Virus record (IMG/VR): IMGVR_UViG_3300021255_002065
Coordinates: 64,001 to 128,000 of that record
Source of the DNA: a virus
Taxonomy: Duplodnaviria > Caudoviricetes
Direction: 5' to 3' (one strand)
DNA length: 64,000 bases
Below are positions 6,815-50,667 of this stretch, in pieces. Numbering within the stretch: the first letter of the stretch is position 1; each line of letters opens with the position of its first letter. The notes beneath the pieces are model-generated. The model ran no database searches. It was not told the origin of the DNA and saw only the letters and a program-made list of their open reading frames with translations. Both the position numbers and the translations under genes were made by a program.

Positions 6815-8408
6815 TATGCCACGTGATGAATACAAAGATTGGATAGCACGAAATGGTGGTCCGAGTGATGAAGATTATGAGACCACTATGGATACAATTG
6901 GTAATACAAAAGATTTATATAAATCTTCACTTGGTAGATTTCAAAAGGGAATGAAGAAAGCGAAAAGTACCAAATCTATTATTGGTATGGCTTCTCGTAA
7001 TACCTTTGATTTCCCTGTGTTTATTTCCAAGAGTGTACCTCTTGATTATGCAACTGCAACAACAATGTTATTGGAACAATTGTATGCGGCATATGTACAG
7101 ATGGCTGTATCTCAGAATCCATATGTTGATGCAAAGAGTGTTGAATGTGGTGGTCTATTAGCCAAGTTCAATACCAACATCACAAAGTATGTTGAATATG
7201 TTGCATTGACAGACACAGAATATCAACACGATGCTTGTCATAATGAAATCTATACGGAAGATGCAGAATTCATATTTGATATGATTGATGTATCTGATGA
7301 AGATGCAGAAGGTATTCTACAAGAAATGGATTATGAACCATTATCTGAATTCGATGACTTCTTCCAAGAAGGCGGCGGCGCCGGTGGTGGTGCTGGTGGT
7401 GGTGCCGGAGCCGGAGCAGGTGCTGGGGCTCCCGCTATTCCAGTTATGCAGGCAAGAAACATACAAGCTCGTCAGGATATTCAAAATGTCGATGCTCGCG
7501 GAAATCGTGTGGATTATGATGCACATGGGAATATTGTCGGACGTCATCGTGATACTCCTTTTGAGCAATATAACAGGGACGTATTCCGTCGTCGTCTTAA
7601 GAACAGAGCTGATTCCGAAAAAGCTGTTGCCGATGCTGAAATTGCTGCACGTGATTTGAAGAATTACAACAAACATGAACGTGAGAACACAGAAGGGCAT
7701 CGTATGAAGATGATGAATCGTTCTCCTGAAATATTAAAAGAGGAAGACATGAGAAAGATGAATTCCATGAAACCTTTATTGATGAAACTTCAGATGAGAG
7801 TGACTCGTCCAGGTCAGCCAGATGATCCACGTGAATTTGTAATCGGTGTACACTGTCATGCTCGTTTGATTGAACCATCCACATTGCCAGATGTTGTCAA
7901 GTTCCCATTGAAAGAGATGAATGCAATTGCTCGTCGTGCAAAATGGAAAGCTGGCGAATTGAAATTCATGAGAGATATCGTATTCCAGATTAAAGAAAGA
8001 AAACAAACCGCTGTCGATGCAAAGGATCCAAAACGCAAATGGTATCGTCGTTTATATGAATTAGCACATTCTAAAGGTGATGCAAATGTGTCTGGGGCTG
8101 TATCTGGAAATGGTACAACTGGTCTAATTCCGAATGCAACGATTATGATTACAAATGGAGATGTGGAAAGTATTAAATCTCAAACCAAACTTGATGTATT
8201 AAAACCATCATTGGCAAAGAGATTGTGTAATGAATTATTCCTCATTTCATTTGTGGTAATTGATCAAGATGCAGAATCAATCAAACTTTATATTCCTGAA
8301 TTATATAAAGATTGGGAAATCCATTCACTTGCAAGTGTTGAAAAACAGCTTGCTGAATTATCTACTGCAGGTTCTAAGACAAGAGACCTGTTCAAATTGA
8401 TTAAGTAA
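6807..8408 (+). CDS. Probable virion structural protein
   Basis: 533 aa; internal FFQE/G site followed by a Gly/Ala linker, matching the window-wide cleavage-type motif. Confidence 0.55.
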   Translation: MIDMPRDEYKDWIARNGGPSDEDYETTMDTIGNTKDLYKSSLGRFQKGMKKAKSTKSIIGMASRNTFDFPVFISKSVPLDYATATTMLLEQLYAAYVQMAVSQNPYVDAKSVECGGLLAKFNTNITKYVEYVALTDTEYQHDACHNEIYTEDAEFIFDMIDVSDEDAEGILQEMDYEPLSEFDDFFQEGGGAGGGAGGGAGAGAGAGAPAIPVMQARNIQARQDIQNVDARGNRVDYDAHGNIVGRHRDTPFEQYNRDVFRRRLKNRADSEKAVADAEIAARDLKNYNKHERENTEGHRMKMMNRSPEILKEEDMRKMNSMKPLLMKLQMRVTRPGQPDDPREFVIGVHCHARLIEPSTLPDVVKFPLKEMNAIARRAKWKAGELKFMRDIVFQIKERKQTAVDAKDPKRKWYRRLYELAHSKGDANVSGAVSGNGTTGLIPNATIMITNGDVESIKSQTKLDVLKPSLAKRLCNELFLISFVVIDQDAESIKLYIPELYKDWEIHSLASVEKQLAELSTAGSKTRDLFKLIK

Positions 8409-9612: not shown

Positions 9613-9632
9613 GAGGGCCCATATGGGCCCTC
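9613..9632. terminator. Perfect palindrome terminator
   Basis: GAGGGCCCATATGGGCCCTC followed by a T-rich tract. Confidence 0.7.
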
Positions 9633-9649
9633 TTCTATTTTTTTAATTT

Positions 9650-9783
9650 TGTATCTATATATAATTAATATGATATAGAAATATATCTATAATATTTCAT
9701 CCTTATGATCAACTCATAAGAACCTAAGTTGAATGCATATACACATAGGTCGATCATGTAGGATTCCAAAAGGAGGTAATCTT
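9650..9783 (+). promoter_or_regulatory. AT-rich putative early promoter plus structured 5' leader (copy A)
   Basis: TATAATTAATATGATATAGAAATATATC and the leader motifs TGATCA, TTGAATGCATATA, GTCGATCAT, GGATTCC-AAAAGGAGG recur at 50484-50615 (minus). Confidence 0.7.
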
Positions 9784-10311
9784 ATGAGAAGAATGTTTAG
9801 AGAATGCAGAGAGACCAGAGACGTTGAACGTCGCTGGAGCGAAAGACTGGAAGCAGCATCCAAATTTACTCAGTCTGAAGAGTTCAAATTATCAGAGGGA
9901 ATGTCCCCTGAGGAAAGAGCCAAATATGAAAGAATGGCGAGAGAACACCTGGGTATCCCGCAGGATGCTGAAGTAGACTGGTATGTGGCTGGCAAAATAG
10001 CAAAAGAAATTCTCGAAATCAAGCGAGATCAAAAACTTGGCAAAGGGAACATCCTCTTTGGAATCGGGAAGAAAAGCGATGAGGAAATCAAGGAAATCCT
10101 CGAAGCGAGGAAGCCTGAAATGCCTAAATTAAGAGAGGTTGAAAAGTCCCTCTCTAACGAAGGCGTACTTAAGGCTGAAACCCAACCGCAGCAGTCTCAG
10201 CAGTCTTATTCGGACAAATACCAGGCTGCAATGCAGGCAGCCCAGCAATTGGCATCTTCTGGTTACTATACACTGGAAGATGCCGTTCGCATTGTAATGG
10301 CAAATCTCTAA
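9784..10311 (+). CDS. Hypothetical accessory protein; C-terminal ~58 aa shared with the next ORF
   Basis: AGGAGG RBS; ends ...KYQAAMQAAQQLASSGYYTLEDAVRIVMANL. Confidence 0.75.
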   Translation: MRRMFRECRETRDVERRWSERLEAASKFTQSEEFKLSEGMSPEERAKYERMAREHLGIPQDAEVDWYVAGKIAKEILEIKRDQKLGKGNILFGIGKKSDEEIKEILEARKPEMPKLREVEKSLSNEGVLKAETQPQQSQQSYSDKYQAAMQAAQQLASSGYYTLEDAVRIVMANL

Positions 10312-10318
10312 AACAAGC

Positions 10319-10388
10319 GACCTGAGTAAGTCATTAAACTGCTCAATCATATACAAATAAGTCCAGCTCATGACTTGAGAAACCGAGC
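10319..10388 (+). ncRNA. Tandem H-type pseudoknot intergenic element (copy 1)
   Basis: GAC-CT-GAGT-AA-GTC..AAAC-T-GCTC then AAGTC-CA-GCTC-AT-GACTT..AAAC-C-GAGC; three near-identical copies in the window. Confidence 0.7.
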
Positions 10389-10410
10389 GTAATTAAAGGA
10401 GGAAATCATT

Positions 10411-10758
10411 ATGTTTGAATTCGGTAATTTTGAAGAAATCCGCGAAATAGACGAAATAGATGAACTCGATTCCAATACTTCTAATGGATACAAGTATACG
10501 AGTGCTGAAGTATGGAAGATGGGAAGAGCTGCTATTGAAAAGCTTTTTGAAGCCAACAAAGATATCTTATTCCCAGAGGTTGAAAAAGACCTCTCTAACG
10601 AAGGGGTATTGAGAGCTGAAACCAAGGCACAGGCTCAGGCACAGCAGCAATCTTACGATGAAAAGTATAGAGCTGCAATGCAGGCAGCTCAGGAGTTGGC
10701 AGCCTCTGGCTATTATACACTGGAACAGGCAATCCAGATTGTAATGGCGAATCTCTAA
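10411..10758 (+). CDS. Hypothetical accessory protein, C-terminal paralog of 9784-10311
   Basis: AGGAGG RBS; ends ...KYRAAMQAAQELAASGYYTLEQAIQIVMANL. Confidence 0.75.
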   Translation: MFEFGNFEEIREIDEIDELDSNTSNGYKYTSAEVWKMGRAAIEKLFEANKDILFPEVEKDLSNEGVLRAETKAQAQAQQQSYDEKYRAAMQAAQELAASGYYTLEQAIQIVMANL

Positions 10759-10765
10759 CAGTAAG

Positions 10766-10835
10766 CGACCTGAGTAAGTCGTTAAAACTGCTCAATCATA
10801 AACATAAGTCCAGCTCATGACTTGAGAAACCGAGC
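10766..10835 (+). ncRNA. Tandem H-type pseudoknot intergenic element (copy 2)
   Basis: Near-identical to 10319-10388; first stem extended to CGAC/GTCG. Confidence 0.7.
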
Positions 10836-10857
10836 ATACCCTAAGGAGGTAATTATT

Positions 10858-11190
10858 ATGAAAAATATTGTTCAATTTTTGCAGGCAGTCGAAATCGCTG
10901 ATATTATCAGCAAAGAGCTTCAGAATGACTCCAGATATCTTGCTGATTATATCCTGGAAGCTGCAAAAGAATCCGGGTATTATATCTGGTCTCAGTCAAT
11001 GGAGGTTGCTGAATCCGCAGTAAAATTATCAATTCCGGTACTGAAATACGTACCTGAACAAGAGTGTGATGCTTCAGTTATCTATAAAATCCAGGCTGCA
11101 TTTGTGATCAACAATATCAAACAGTTGGACGAGATGAAGACTGCAGAAAGAAAGGCTCATCAAGAGCCAACTTTCATGTATTTCATCTAA
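10858..11190 (+). CDS. Hypothetical accessory protein
   Basis: AAGGAGGT RBS before ATG 10858 (MKNIVQF...). Confidence 0.7.
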   Translation: MKNIVQFLQAVEIADIISKELQNDSRYLADYILEAAKESGYYIWSQSMEVAESAVKLSIPVLKYVPEQECDASVIYKIQAAFVINNIKQLDEMKTAERKAHQEPTFMYFI

Positions 11191-11197
11191 CAGAACA

Positions 11198-11268
11198 TCC
11201 CTGCTGAAAAGCAGGGAGGTGAGTATATGAATTATCGTATATTGACCTCTCTGCTTTTTTCTTTTCTT
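11198..11268 (+). terminator. Long-stem terminator/attenuator with an alternative upstream hairpin (copy A)
   Basis: AAAAGCAGGGAGGT...ACCTCTCTGCTTTT plus T tract; homologous copy at 49703-49772 (minus). Confidence 0.7.
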
Positions 11269-11303
11269 GTACACACATATTGTTTAATTGAGGGGGTGAT
11301 ACA

Positions 11304-11711
11304 ATGATATTGTATCAAGCAATACAAACAAGTGCAATGATGTTATATTACTACTACTTGAGTTATAAACGGCTTCCATTACACTTAGACCAAGATGTGT
11401 TAAATCAATTTACATCACACATCATACAATTGTTCAAATGGAAATTCCCAACAATGTCATTGACAACTGATGAATTCAATGATCCGAATTTCATATTATT
11501 TGATGAACCATTTGATGAAGTATATCAATCAGATACTCGAGAGAACATGTATTCTTCTATGTTGCATGATTTAATTGAATTTCCATTAAAGCATTCGCTT
11601 ATCATAACAGATGATTATACCATACTACAAATACTACCGATTCCATTTGATAGTTTGGATATCACTCATGGTATGATAATAAACTTCTTCACTCCAATAT
11701 TGGATAGATAA
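11304..11711 (+). CDS. Hypothetical protein
   Basis: GGGGGTGA RBS; 135 aa. Confidence 0.6.
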   Translation: MILYQAIQTSAMMLYYYYLSYKRLPLHLDQDVLNQFTSHIIQLFKWKFPTMSLTTDEFNDPNFILFDEPFDEVYQSDTRENMYSSMLHDLIEFPLKHSLIITDDYTILQILPIPFDSLDITHGMIINFFTPILDR

Positions 11712-11728
11712 TATGATAACGTAGGCAG

Positions 11729-11929
11729 GTGAATATTATGACATTTAACATTCAAATTCTAGATATGAATCACAATCACGTCGCAGATGCAATGAATGCA
11801 TCCATGGAAGATGTATTAAAGTTCCTGAGAAAAGGAATGGTTGTGATTAACATGGCAACTGGATTGGAAATGAGTGAATCCGAATTACTCAATACAGTCG
11901 GTGTTGCTGATTGTGTTATGCCAGGATAA
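11729..11929 (+). CDS. Small hypothetical protein
   Basis: 66-aa ORF filling the intergenic gap; AGGTG RBS suggests the start may be ATG 11738. Confidence 0.55.
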   Translation: MNIMTFNIQILDMNHNHVADAMNASMEDVLKFLRKGMVVINMATGLEMSESELLNTVGVADCVMPG

Positions 11930-12025
11930 ATAAAATAATTTTGGCATATATAGTATTACAGTGTATTAGAGATACAATGTATCCTAATCATAAATTAATT
12001 ATTTTATTACAGGAGGTAATCTATT

Positions 12026-12466
12026 ATGATTACAACAGCAAATCATTCGTTAGCCGCTATCGCTGAATGGGGAAACCAGGCATTCAACAATGTGAATGGA
12101 ACCACTCCCGAACTTCAGCAAGCTTTCCGCCAGACTTTGAAAGCTGGCATTAAGAAAGCAAATTATCCGAGCTGTGAAGCAGAACTCGGTATCATCGATG
12201 AAATCAATGACTTCGATGTGACACCGATTGCCGAACAGATTCCCAATGCAGTTGCCAAGTACATGGCTGAAACAGGTCGTGCACTAAATCTTCCCGCACC
12301 GGATGAGAATACAGCACCTGCAACACTCAAACTCATTCACAAGGATGAAACTGTCAATACAGGTATCATTCAGATGGGTGACAAGAAAGGTCAGCCATAT
12401 GAATCCAAGGTAGCTGCTCATGATGAATACAAAATCAAGAGCAACAACAAACAGTTCAAAGACTAA
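12026..12466 (+). CDS. Hypothetical protein, weak HU/IHF-like C-terminal half
   Basis: AGGAGGT RBS; own AT-rich promoter-like region at about 11940-11965; C-terminus resembles the HU helix/beta-arm pattern. Confidence 0.6.
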   Translation: MITTANHSLAAIAEWGNQAFNNVNGTTPELQQAFRQTLKAGIKKANYPSCEAELGIIDEINDFDVTPIAEQIPNAVAKYMAETGRALNLPAPDENTAPATLKLIHKDETVNTGIIQMGDKKGQPYESKVAAHDEYKIKSNNKQFKD

Positions 12467-12482
12467 TCAGTATTACAACAAT

Positions 12483-12504
12483 ATCCCCCACATATGTGGG
12501 GGAT
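12483..12504. terminator. Perfect palindrome hairpin
   Basis: ATCCCCCACATATGTGGGGGAT. Confidence 0.6.
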
Positions 12505-12525
12505 GACTTTATGGAGGTTTTTATC

Positions 12526-13119
12526 ATGGAAAATAATGTATTTAAGATGCTCAAAGAACAGATAATGCCAGATATCGAATTCGCATATGATGCATTGATA
12601 AAGGTGGTTGACAAATTATATGAGACTTATCCGGATTTAAAATTGACAGTGAAGGGTGTTCCAAGCATGATTAATATCTGTGCTACCTTTAATACTGACG
12701 GTAGAACATTTAAATGTGACATGCGTCTCATTCCGCAGATATATACAAATGGAACACCTGTCGCATATATCGGAATAAATGAAGAAGTACAATCAGCTCG
12801 AGAACAATTCCATCATATTCCCAATGGATACACGTCAAATTTGACAAATAGTCCAACCGTGAATGTGCAAACAAGTCCAACTCTAGCAGAATTGTCTTCG
12901 AGTATCAACAATATTTGTTCCATTGATTATGGCAAGAAATATAAAAATGTCATGAAATACGACAAGGCTGTCAAGCGGTACAACAATGAAGCAATGTTTG
13001 ATTGGATTTACAATTTCATCAAAGACCTTGATAAAGAGATGGATGATGGTGGAATTCCAATTGACCTGGAGCTGGAATCAAAAATAAGACGCAATGAGTA
13101 TGATGATGAAGAATATTAA
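12526..13119 (+). CDS. Hypothetical protein
   Basis: GGAGG RBS before ATG 12526. Confidence 0.65.
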   Translation: MENNVFKMLKEQIMPDIEFAYDALIKVVDKLYETYPDLKLTVKGVPSMINICATFNTDGRTFKCDMRLIPQIYTNGTPVAYIGINEEVQSAREQFHHIPNGYTSNLTNSPTVNVQTSPTLAELSSSINNICSIDYGKKYKNVMKYDKAVKRYNNEAMFDWIYNFIKDLDKEMDDGGIPIDLELESKIRRNEYDDEEY

Positions 13120-13129
13120 TCACACAATG

Positions 13130-13157
13130 AACAACCGGGGCATATGCCCCGGTTGTT
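13130..13157. terminator. Bidirectional terminator, 28-bp perfect palindrome
   Basis: AACAACCGGGGCATATGCCCCGGTTGTT between convergent genes. Confidence 0.8.
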
Positions 13158-13168
13158 TTTCTTGTGTA

Positions 13169-48871: not shown

Positions 48872-49615
48872 TTACTCAGGTTTATTTGTATCGGACTTTA
48901 CATAGGTCTCTAAGAATTCATCATAATTCTTATCGACAATCTTAATGTAATTGATACTCGTCTTTTTCATCTCCACTTTCATTCTGGCATCTTTCAAATA
49001 TTCAATCTCACGAGCATGTTCCATTCGTGGATGGGTGTTATCTGATTCCTTGATTTCTACTTCTAATGATAAAGAAGGAATAAAAAAATCAGGAATGTAA
49101 AGATGGGTTGACCCATCTTTCCACTTGTACCAGTAATTATTAGGAGAAGGTGCGATAATGTCATCGGGAGACCAGTCCAAACTTTTCAATTGATTTAAAA
49201 AGTCTGACTCATAAGTTCCGATAACATGAAATTGATGTGTGTCATCCCAAATATAATCTTTTGACATAGGATGATTATGAATCATCTTACGTTGCATCTC
49301 TGCATCATTGAGCAAATGTTCTTTTCCATATACATTCACCATACGTTGTTTCATTTGATGAACATACGCTTCTTTACATGCGGGATTATCACACAACCTC
49401 TCATACTTCAATGTCTCTTTATTAAAGTGAACCTGGTTCTTTCGACACATCAAACATAATCTTCCCACTGGCTTGTGAACCAGTAATGAATATGCAAATT
49501 CCAATGGTTCATTTTCATCTGGAATTTGGTCATTATGTTGATATGCGATATGATGGCAATATGCATGTTTGTCATCAAAGATTCGATTACAAAAAAGACA
49601 TCTCGTGTTACGCAT
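48872..49615 (-). CDS. Zinc-finger PD-(D/E)xK nuclease (TnsA/head-completion-like)
   Basis: CLFC..H...H and CLMC..C....C; YE..F; YIPDF...VEIK catalytic motif. GGAAAGGCGGTG RBS precedes ATG 49615; the frame is also open from ATG 49741. Confidence 0.7.
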   Translation of the reverse strand: MRNTRCLFCNRIFDDKHAYCHHIAYQHNDQIPDENEPLEFAYSLLVHKPVGRLCLMCRKNQVHFNKETLKYERLCDNPACKEAYVHQMKQRMVNVYGKEHLLNDAEMQRKMIHNHPMSKDYIWDDTHQFHVIGTYESDFLNQLKSLDWSPDDIIAPSPNNYWYKWKDGSTHLYIPDFFIPSLSLEVEIKESDNTHPRMEHAREIEYLKDARMKVEMKKTSINYIKIVDKNYDEFLETYVKSDTNKPE

Positions 49616-49702: not shown

Positions 49703-49772
49703 AAAAGAAAAAAGCAGGAGAGTCAATATACGATAATTCATATACTCACTCTCCTGCTTTTCTGCAGGATGA
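49703..49772 (-). terminator. Long-stem terminator/attenuator (copy B)
   Basis: TCCTGCAGAAAAGCAGGAGAGTGAGTATATGAATTATCGTATATTGACTCTCCTGCTTTTTTCTTTT on minus; homologous to 11198-11268. Confidence 0.7.
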
Positions 49773-50483
49773 TTATTTCTTGATGATTTTGCCATCGGAG
49801 ATTCCAAATACTTCTCCGAGTTCCTTTGACATCAGATACCACCTTTCTTCATACTCACCCTTATAGTGGTGAGCCACATGATATGATGAAAGTGGATATA
49901 CATCCTTGTCCTCCAATGGACCACAGGTCCACTCTGGGCAGCCATAGCGGCCGCGTAAATATGCTCTTCCGGCCACGAGGCCTTTTGATTCAGCGAACAT
50001 GCCGAAACATGCGCCTTCATCAAGATGCCCGTCGTGACTCAGACATTCCTGATTTCTCAGGTTTGCCTTTTTGAAGCTGACCCATTCTCCCCAGAGGCCA
50101 TCTGCCTCTGACTGCTTTTCAGCAGCTTCAGCAGCAGCCTGAGTTTCCTTGACCCACTCACTGTTTGGGTGTACAGTGATGAGGTCTGCTGAACCAGCAC
50201 CTGCGTGATGCAATTCGAAAGTGTCAAATACACCCTTTGATACATTCACGCATAATCCTGCCACCGTCCAGAAACTATCCATTCCTGCAATGGATTTTCT
50301 TGAAACCTTGCATTTCAGCCCTCTAGACGCAAGGAATCCCTTGAACATTTCTAATGTAGAAATGTACTTGTGTCCAAGATCCCAATCGAACTTTGCGTAT
50401 TGGGATTCTTCCGGGTTCTTGCAATCTTCAATCTCATAAAATTTTTCCCAAGCCTTGTAAAGTGCAGAATTGAATTGTGTCAT
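49773..50483 (-). CDS. Hypothetical accessory protein (single-gene cassette)
   Basis: AAAAGGAGG RBS before MTQFNS; visibly higher GC than its flanks. Confidence 0.7.
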   Translation of the reverse strand: MTQFNSALYKAWEKFYEIEDCKNPEESQYAKFDWDLGHKYISTLEMFKGFLASRGLKCKVSRKSIAGMDSFWTVAGLCVNVSKGVFDTFELHHAGAGSADLITVHPNSEWVKETQAAAEAAEKQSEADGLWGEWVSFKKANLRNQECLSHDGHLDEGACFGMFAESKGLVAGRAYLRGRYGCPEWTCGPLEDKDVYPLSSYHVAHHYKGEYEERWYLMSKELGEVFGISDGKIIKK

Positions 50484-50615
50484 AGTAATTCCTCCTTTTC
50501 GGAATCCCCAATGATCGACTCGGGTATATATGCATTCAACCTGAGTATACCATGACATGATCATGGAGATATAATATTATTATTGATATATTTCTATATC
50601 ATATTAATTATATTT
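50484..50615 (-). promoter_or_regulatory. Putative early promoter plus structured leader (copy B)
   Basis: Homologous to 9650-9783 with compensatory stem changes. Confidence 0.7.
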
Positions 50616-50647
50616 ATATGAAAAAATAAAATAATAGAGACAGATGA

Positions 50648-50667
50648 GGTGGGCCAATTGGCCCACC
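50648..50667. terminator. Perfect palindrome hairpin
   Basis: GGTGGGCCAATTGGCCCACC between divergent units. Confidence 0.5.

Follow-up and report, generated by a model that had tools for sequence, protein, structure and literature searches.

The window analysed here, 64,000 nt in length, corresponds to bases 64001-128000 of a 148-kb IMG/VR virus record estimated to be 55% complete, and it holds two copies of a block of ~70 nt, beyond which the sequences of the two sites are unrelated. Copy A spans 11195-11265 on the + strand, and begins 4 nt past the TAA of an ORF at 10822-11190 with the arm ACATCCCTGCT (11195-11205), which extends the motif CCCTGC (11199-11204) and forms the 5′ side of an antiterminator-like competitor hairpin. 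There follow a GAAA(A) loop or A tract together with a shared purine-rich arm (11206-11220; the arm itself, GCAGGGAGGT, occupies 11211-11220) that can find its partner either upstream or downstream, an invariant apex (11221-11244) made of a 9-bp inner hairpin with an AUUA loop and a flanking G/G mismatch, a 3′ arm ACCTCTCTGC (11245-11254) and a T tract TTTTTTCTTTT (11255-11265). Copy B spans 49772-49703 on the − strand and has the same layout: its competitor arm TCATCCTGC (49764-49772, with TCCTGC at 49769-49764) lies directly 3′ of the TAA (49775-49773) of the ORF 50564-49773, and is followed by a loop AGAAAA with the shared arm (49748-49763; the arm GCAGGAGAGT at 49757-49748), an apex that is the same as in copy A (49747-49724), a 3′ arm ACTCTCCTGC (49723-49714) and a T tract (49713-49703). 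The 28-nt centre of the block occurs exactly twice in the window and exactly twice in the whole 148-kb record, where no occurrence is expected.

Both copies form the 3′ end of small promoter-gene-terminator cassettes that are present or absent between close relatives. Cassette A (9613-11265, +) has a 5′ boundary (9613-9678) composed of a simple terminator hairpin (9613-9632), a T-rich tail and a promoter-like motif (9655-9678), and its cargo (9733-11190) consists of three ORFs of 192, 115 and 122 aa. Cassette B (50667-49703, −) has the same three parts at its opening, a simple hairpin (50667-50648), a T-rich tail (50640-50621) and an AT-rich promoter-like motif (50617-50594), which together make up its 5′ boundary (50594-50667), and carries a 263-aa ORF (49773-50564). 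Neither the three cargo ORFs of cassette A nor the 263-aa ORF of cassette B matched a family in PHROG or Pfam. Among the cassette and neighbouring proteins, only the endonuclease encoded downstream of copy B (48872-49615, −; phrog_15137, DUF7487, with Cys/His motifs) was matched in these collections, and almost no proteins of the window are. Behind copy A lie three ORFs (11304-13119, +) closed by a simple terminator (13129-13158); these genes have no promoter-like site of their own, and the 38 nt that separate the T tract from the ATG at 11304 (11266-11303) contain none.

The AT-rich motif, ATATATATNATTNATATGATAT, stands upstream of genes in ~10 copies per 148 kb and is without a clear −35 box; besides the two cassette openings, copies were located at ~63645 (−) in the window and at 7644, 10153, 19060, 37318 and other positions in G000. 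Since it is common to at least 13 jumbo-phage contigs, it may represent a phage-specific class of promoter. A further non-coding part, a leader of ~95 nt without a match in Rfam, occurs twice within cassette A (10319-10413 and 10767-10867, +), where it separates the cargo ORFs. Other copies are found at 63290-63192 (−) of the window and in related contigs (L004:6885-6982; L006:2486-2580; L005:991-1086, −), 80-90% identical between copies and between phages, and placed directly before AAGGAGG and the start codon of unrelated cargo genes.

The closest complete relative, G002 (294.5 kb), illustrates how these cassettes vary. At site A (L005:881-1075) a single ORF of ~55 codons replaces the three cargo ORFs, and the flanking non-coding parts and the neighbouring genes are 96-98% identical despite this replacement; past the cargo, G000 and G002 become homologous again at precisely 11199, where the upstream arm CCCTGC begins. 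Cassette B (~50625-49709) is entirely missing from G002, leaving a clean indel of ~917 nt (compared with L066:540-800) whose joint falls in the T-rich direct repeats TTTTATTTTTT that tail the two hairpins, the tail of copy B being one of the two repeats. The predicted promoter and terminator motifs are conserved around unrelated cargo, with indels and a replacement whose joints lie in the motifs, as is expected of exchangeable cassettes. Five different cargo genes end against the block, with stop codons placed from 5 nt upstream of the competitor helix to 6 nt inside it.

For both copies, the minimum-energy fold (−35.2 kcal/mol; z-scores −6.6 and −7.9) is a single hairpin of ~25 bp that runs into a U tract. 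From base to tip, this long hairpin consists of 10-11 bp of outer stem, one G/G mismatch, 9 bp of inner stem with two G.U pairs, and the AUUA loop; in free RNA, the outer stem is extended by pairs between the A tract and the U tract. The reverse strand folds far more weakly (−20 and −25 kcal/mol) because the two G.U pairs turn into C.A, a preference which points to function as RNA of the strand carrying the upstream gene. Runs of T6-T8, then C/G and further T, follow the stem directly in all eight copies known to us (see below). A stable hairpin in the forward-strand RNA with a U tract directly after the stem, as in an intrinsic terminator, is therefore present in the sequence, and its location, where an accessory cassette ends, is that expected of a terminator. 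Other sites with a hairpin and a T tract in these phages resemble ordinary intrinsic terminators, indicating that the transcription machinery in play uses such signals. An earlier note on this DNA, made from the sequence alone, had described both sites, and its arms, T tracts, ATG positions and ATGA overlap all proved correct on re-checking. The stretch of 24 nt first taken for a “loop” within the long stem is, however, a hairpin in its own right (9 bp, two G.U pairs, AUUA loop), which makes the terminator one hairpin of ~25 bp. The upstream pairing that the note proposed is likewise real, but is longer than first read, covering 8-10 nt of the 5′ arm.

Used as an exact query, the centre retrieved six further copies from contigs of related phages and metagenomes, namely three IMG/VR contigs and three additional metagenome contigs; the total is eight distinct copies, which occupy three genomic sites and show four variants of the outer stem. 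Site A is represented by the window, L005, L035 and L038, site B by the window and L003, and site C, which lies between convergent genes, by L004 and L006; wherever a genome holds two sites, it has two copies. Aligned by means of a model, the copies show pairing in 152 of 152 cells of the terminator helix, five of whose pairs have changed on both sides. For the competitor helix, with L006 shifted into register, the figure is 47 of 48 cells, the sole exception being a C.A mismatch in L038. In three columns of the shared arm (30, 32 and 34), a substitution is accompanied by matching ones in the upstream as well as the downstream partner, in different lineages. The competitor hairpin was found in every copy (8-10 bp, usually with a GAAA loop, −10 to −15 kcal/mol), and in seven of the eight it is more stable than 991-1000 of 1000 composition-preserving shuffles (964 of 1000 for L038). 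Given this covariation across the four stem variants, albeit within a small sample of closely related phages only, both pairings can be regarded as real and mutually exclusive, as the earlier note had proposed, and the upstream competitor hairpin is under selection.

The apex behaves differently from the stem around it: 26 nt are the same throughout, whereas up to half of the outer-stem positions vary, and the same holds between the two paralogs of one genome. This invariance should be interpreted with caution, as it is in part a matter of ascertainment, the copies having been retrieved with the apex itself. Covariance model R1, applied to the whole of G000-G003, returned the six known copies and weak matches to ordinary terminators, with no diverged copies, and a covariance-model search of ten further jumbo-phage contigs that share the promoter motif gave no copies. 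The apex was not found in a collection of bacterial and archaeal genomes, and blastn against deposited phages gave no match. Within the window, Rfam gave no match at the gathering threshold, and at a permissive threshold its best sub-threshold matches were unrelated and far below their cut-offs; a scan for tRNA and tmRNA found none. The element is limited to a narrow clade of uncultured jumbo phages. In our own scan for terminators with an upstream competitor, the two copies ranked first and third among 18 candidates, a ranking for which the control was too small.

Hairpins of other designs were also seen in these phages. Two intergenic hairpins (L069:6270-6335 and L067:12700-12760) share the geometry of the element, with 10 bp, a G/G mismatch, a near-identical 9-bp inner stem and a tetraloop; they have neither a T tract nor an ATG, their 5′ arm is pyrimidine-rich, and they are preceded by a covarying hairpin that does not overlap them. 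This likeness may be due to chance, since the inner stem was forced by the search pattern. Separately, L021 (G002:265491-265557) holds two tandem hairpins with a common loop TGCCGCCGG, the second of which is a terminator, representing another repeated hairpin design.

The explanation that we favour, with slightly better than even confidence, is that the element is an intrinsic terminator closing exchangeable promoter-gene-terminator cassettes, and that a second, selected hairpin upstream holds its 5′ arm during RNA synthesis. As in an attenuator, the alternative hairpin excludes the terminator by taking up its base, and covariation has kept this arrangement. The upstream hairpin would form first and act only during transcription, after which the 3′ arm could displace it by strand displacement from a free 4-nt toehold (AGGU/ACCU); alternatively, a ribosome finishing the last gene of the cassette might melt it. 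The net effect would be to set how completely the cassette is insulated from the sequence downstream.

What the competitor contributes to such a terminator could be seen in two ways, which we judge about equally likely and put forward only tentatively. It is possible that the competitor lowers termination unless a terminating ribosome melts it, and it is just as possible that it serves as a short-lived placeholder, which stops the SD-like arm from mispairing or from binding the 30S subunit until the 3′ arm appears. The spacing of the stop codons suggests that a terminating ribosome, with a footprint of established size, would cover the competitor, and a ribosome at the cargo stop codon is the sole candidate sensor: the frame of the internal ATG is not conserved and the element has no match in Rfam. 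For refolding of the competitor into the terminator, the calculations give a barrier of 0-7 kcal/mol, which is low because the competitor leaves four bases of the shared arm unpaired to act as a toehold; this would be consistent with a designed hand-over from one hairpin to the other.

Calculated energies favour the completed terminator over the competitor fold by 5-12 kcal/mol. The predicted probability that the base of the terminator is formed is 0.96-0.98 in copy B, L003, L004 and L038, 0.75-0.95 in L005 and L035, 0.2-0.3 in copy A and 0.045 in L006, so that this balance is not conserved (0.05-0.98) and differs even among orthologous sites; a model in which the competitor grants a fixed leak through the terminator was weakened on this account. 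At the decision point, with the U tract still in the polymerase, the competitor is predicted to hold only in copy A and L006, and its persistence until the polymerase passes the U tract was not borne out by these calculations. With so low a barrier, the competitor could hardly hold unaided against the terminator in most copies. At site C the element has no co-directional gene beside it, and its position between convergent genes leaves nothing co-directional to gate; at site A there are the three promoterless genes, and at site B the same downstream genes are run by G002 without the cassette. Whether the element is a true switch is therefore uncertain.

The strongest form of such a switch would be a conditional terminator in which the whole cargo gene plays the part of the “leader”: the ribosome finishing it would melt the competitor and turn termination on, transcripts that are untranslated, uncoupled or made by a faster phage polymerase would read through, and the apex would be the docking site of a phage timing factor. 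We consider this unlikely, although, if true, it would amount to a portable, context-independent translation sensor within mobile phage cassettes.

The invariant apex might instead be the recognition site of a phage or host protein, either an (anti)termination factor or a double-strand RNase such as RNase III, with the upstream hairpin refolding after cleavage as a protective 3′ end of the mRNA. RNase III cuts duplexes of ~25 bp, with precedents in T7 and lambda sib, and the duplex here is of that size, with a single G/G mismatch. Such recognition would also account for an apex that is identical throughout beside an outer stem so free to vary, and the GNRA-type mini-hairpin is stable alone. 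No candidate protein was identified, however, and the identity of the apex is subject to the bias of having served as search query. Moreover, terminated RNAs already end in a protective hairpin, so that a back-up would be needed for read-through RNA only, and this explanation seems to us improbable, if somewhat less so than those that follow.

A simpler proposal is that the element is a plain terminator, and its upstream complement a functionless leftover, either a direct repeat of the 3′ arm or a stretch homogenised by templated repair. The upstream and downstream arms are identical 6-mers in copy B (TCCTGC) and L004 (CTCCGC), and a mismatch is tolerated in L038; the low barrier and the dominance of the terminator in most copies also lead one to predict little functional consequence. 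Yet the three positions of the shared arm have changed together with both partners in different lineages. Nor was a simple ancestor, a mini-hairpin followed directly by a T tract, present in any of five related genomes, and the orthologous convergent sites in five relatives bear unrelated simple terminators, for which reasons descent from the mini-hairpin as an ancestral simple terminator was rejected. We therefore hold a functionless upstream arm to be a poor, though not negligible, alternative to the selected hairpin.

Considerably less plausible is that the apex hides a phage-type promoter, from which transcripts would start inside the hairpin and, being without the 5′ arm, would be unable to terminate and so express the genes behind; T4 late promoters inside hairpins that mask the RBS use a comparable trick. 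The apex and the repeated promoter-like motif have TATATGA in common, 17 of 20 nt match between the apex and the island-3 variant of the motif (TATATGAATTAAGATCGTAT, ~63645-63620, −), a pattern TTGAC(C/T)-N17-18-T-rich hexamer is matched in copy B, L004 and L006, and the gene at 11304 is preceded by no other promoter. However, the element lacks the upstream half of the promoter motif, and the likeness to the island-3 variant may be due to chance, as the 11-mer common to both is found five times in the genome. A promoter in this position would yield only antisense RNA at the convergent site, and the two apex mismatches are both G.U in the forward strand, a sign of RNA pairing rather than of a DNA site.

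The remaining proposal came from the earlier note. It took the SD and ATG inside the long stem to start a genuine small ORF, whose product would be a leader peptide with translation coupled to the following gene, or else a hydrophobic peptide resembling a type I toxin; the hairpin would then be a translational gate. An SD-like run (GGAGG, AGGAG, GGAGGAG or GAGGUGA) does lie 7-10 nt before an invariant ATG in all four stem variants, although this is expected of a purine-rich arm that varies by transitions only. In copy A the ATG at 11227 opens a frame of 26 codons (11227-11307) whose stop overlaps the ATG at 11304 (ATGA), and in copy B the frame of the ATG at 49741 continues into the nuclease ORF, which would give a fusion of 289 aa. 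Following the frame through further copies, as the earlier note had advised, showed the ATG to be invariant and the upstream hairpin to be present in each of them, but the frame past the T tract is not conserved: its product is 26 aa in the site A copies, a fusion to the nuclease in copy B of the window, a 29-aa dead end out of the nuclease frame in L003, where the T tract is one base longer (T7 instead of T6), and 18 aa in L004 and 29 aa in L006, where it runs into the convergent gene. What is conserved of the peptide is MNYRIL alone, inside an apex that is invariant at every nucleotide, synonymous sites included, and its conservation is hence imposed by the hairpin; the hydrophobic look of the remainder is simply what U-rich sequence encodes.

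The nuclease gene points in the same direction. The PHROG endonuclease profile begins at the Met of 49615, whose ATG has an SD of its own, and G002 carries the same gene, in a stretch of DNA that is 96% identical, without the element or the MNYRIL ATG upstream. The reading of copy B as running in frame into the nuclease holds for the window and fails in L003; the true start of the nuclease is the ATG at 49615, and longer ORF calls from 49807 or 49741 are artefacts. Because, in addition, neither of the alternative folds exposes the SD-like arm or the ATG, which are base-paired in each, and terminated transcripts would be without a stop codon, a real small ORF is the least credible of the explanations considered. 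The ATG and SD within the hairpin are by-products, and the frame at 11227-11307 is most likely no gene, its “leader peptide” being an accident of sequence.

Returning to the terminator with a selected upstream hairpin, we suggest that its interest is twofold. A very dark lineage of jumbo phages builds its islands of accessory genes from a reusable non-coding kit, which includes a predicted terminator with a co-evolving rival hairpin. Should this rival tune or condition termination, it would be a compact, portable control element and a natural case of strand displacement that looks engineered; should it be a folding aid only, the striking three-way covariation would still be explained. In either case, a false small-ORF or toxin annotation is removed and the start of a nuclease gene is corrected.

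Mobile cassettes of comparable architecture have been described in T4-type phages as promoter-early stem-loops (PeSLs), in which composite terminator/promoter motifs flank variable, mostly ORFan genes and the breakpoints between close relatives fall in the motifs (Arbiol et al., 2010, PMC2839356; Comeau et al., 2014, PMC4122927). The cassettes reported here likewise have conserved flanking motifs, variable cargo, and indels or replacements with joints in the motifs. They differ in belonging to an unclassified group of jumbo phages and in their 3′ boundary, which is a two-state hairpin of ~70 nt with an invariant apex instead of the simple stem-loop of a PeSL; the recombination joints, in turn, lie in T-rich tails.

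A second parallel is provided by the morons (Hendrix, Juhala) of HK97 and HK022, autonomous promoter-gene-terminator units that sit between essential genes of temperate siphoviruses and are expressed from the prophage. As in morons, a promoter, one or more accessory genes and an intrinsic terminator form a unit that lies in or beside structural operons and is variably present. Unlike in morons, the non-coding parts form a kit that is used repeatedly.

At the level of RNA, the element resembles the attenuators of trp and pyrBI, T-box elements and riboswitches, in which an upstream hairpin, made first, takes the base of the terminator stem, and in the case of trp a ribosome at a stop codon covers the competing strand. 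Here, too, two mutually exclusive hairpins share one strand beside a terminator with a U tract. In contrast to these classical systems, no sensor has come to light, the part of the “leader” would fall to an entire cargo gene, and the competitor is short, with a low barrier, a balance that is not conserved and one site without a downstream gene. The closest precedent for a leader start within the stem would be the ampC attenuator of E. coli, for which Jaurin, Grundstrom and Normark reportedly described in 1981 an SD and an ATG inside an intrinsic terminator that also ends the upstream operon; in our case, neither fold leaves the SD and ATG unpaired, and homologs do not keep the ORF that the ATG opens.

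The competitor may be compared, finally, with the transient non-native helices that guide co-transcriptional folding of RNA, in which an early local helix gives way by branch migration via a toehold. It would similarly form locally and be displaced via a free toehold, across a calculated barrier of only 0-7 kcal/mol, but we know of no transient helix described as a selected accessory of a phage terminator. The kinds of component are thus known, namely an intrinsic terminator, an attenuator-like pairing and a cassette of the PeSL or moron type, whereas their combination is new: an invariant apex, a variable stem and an upstream arm in three-way covariation, at the edge of a mobile cassette.
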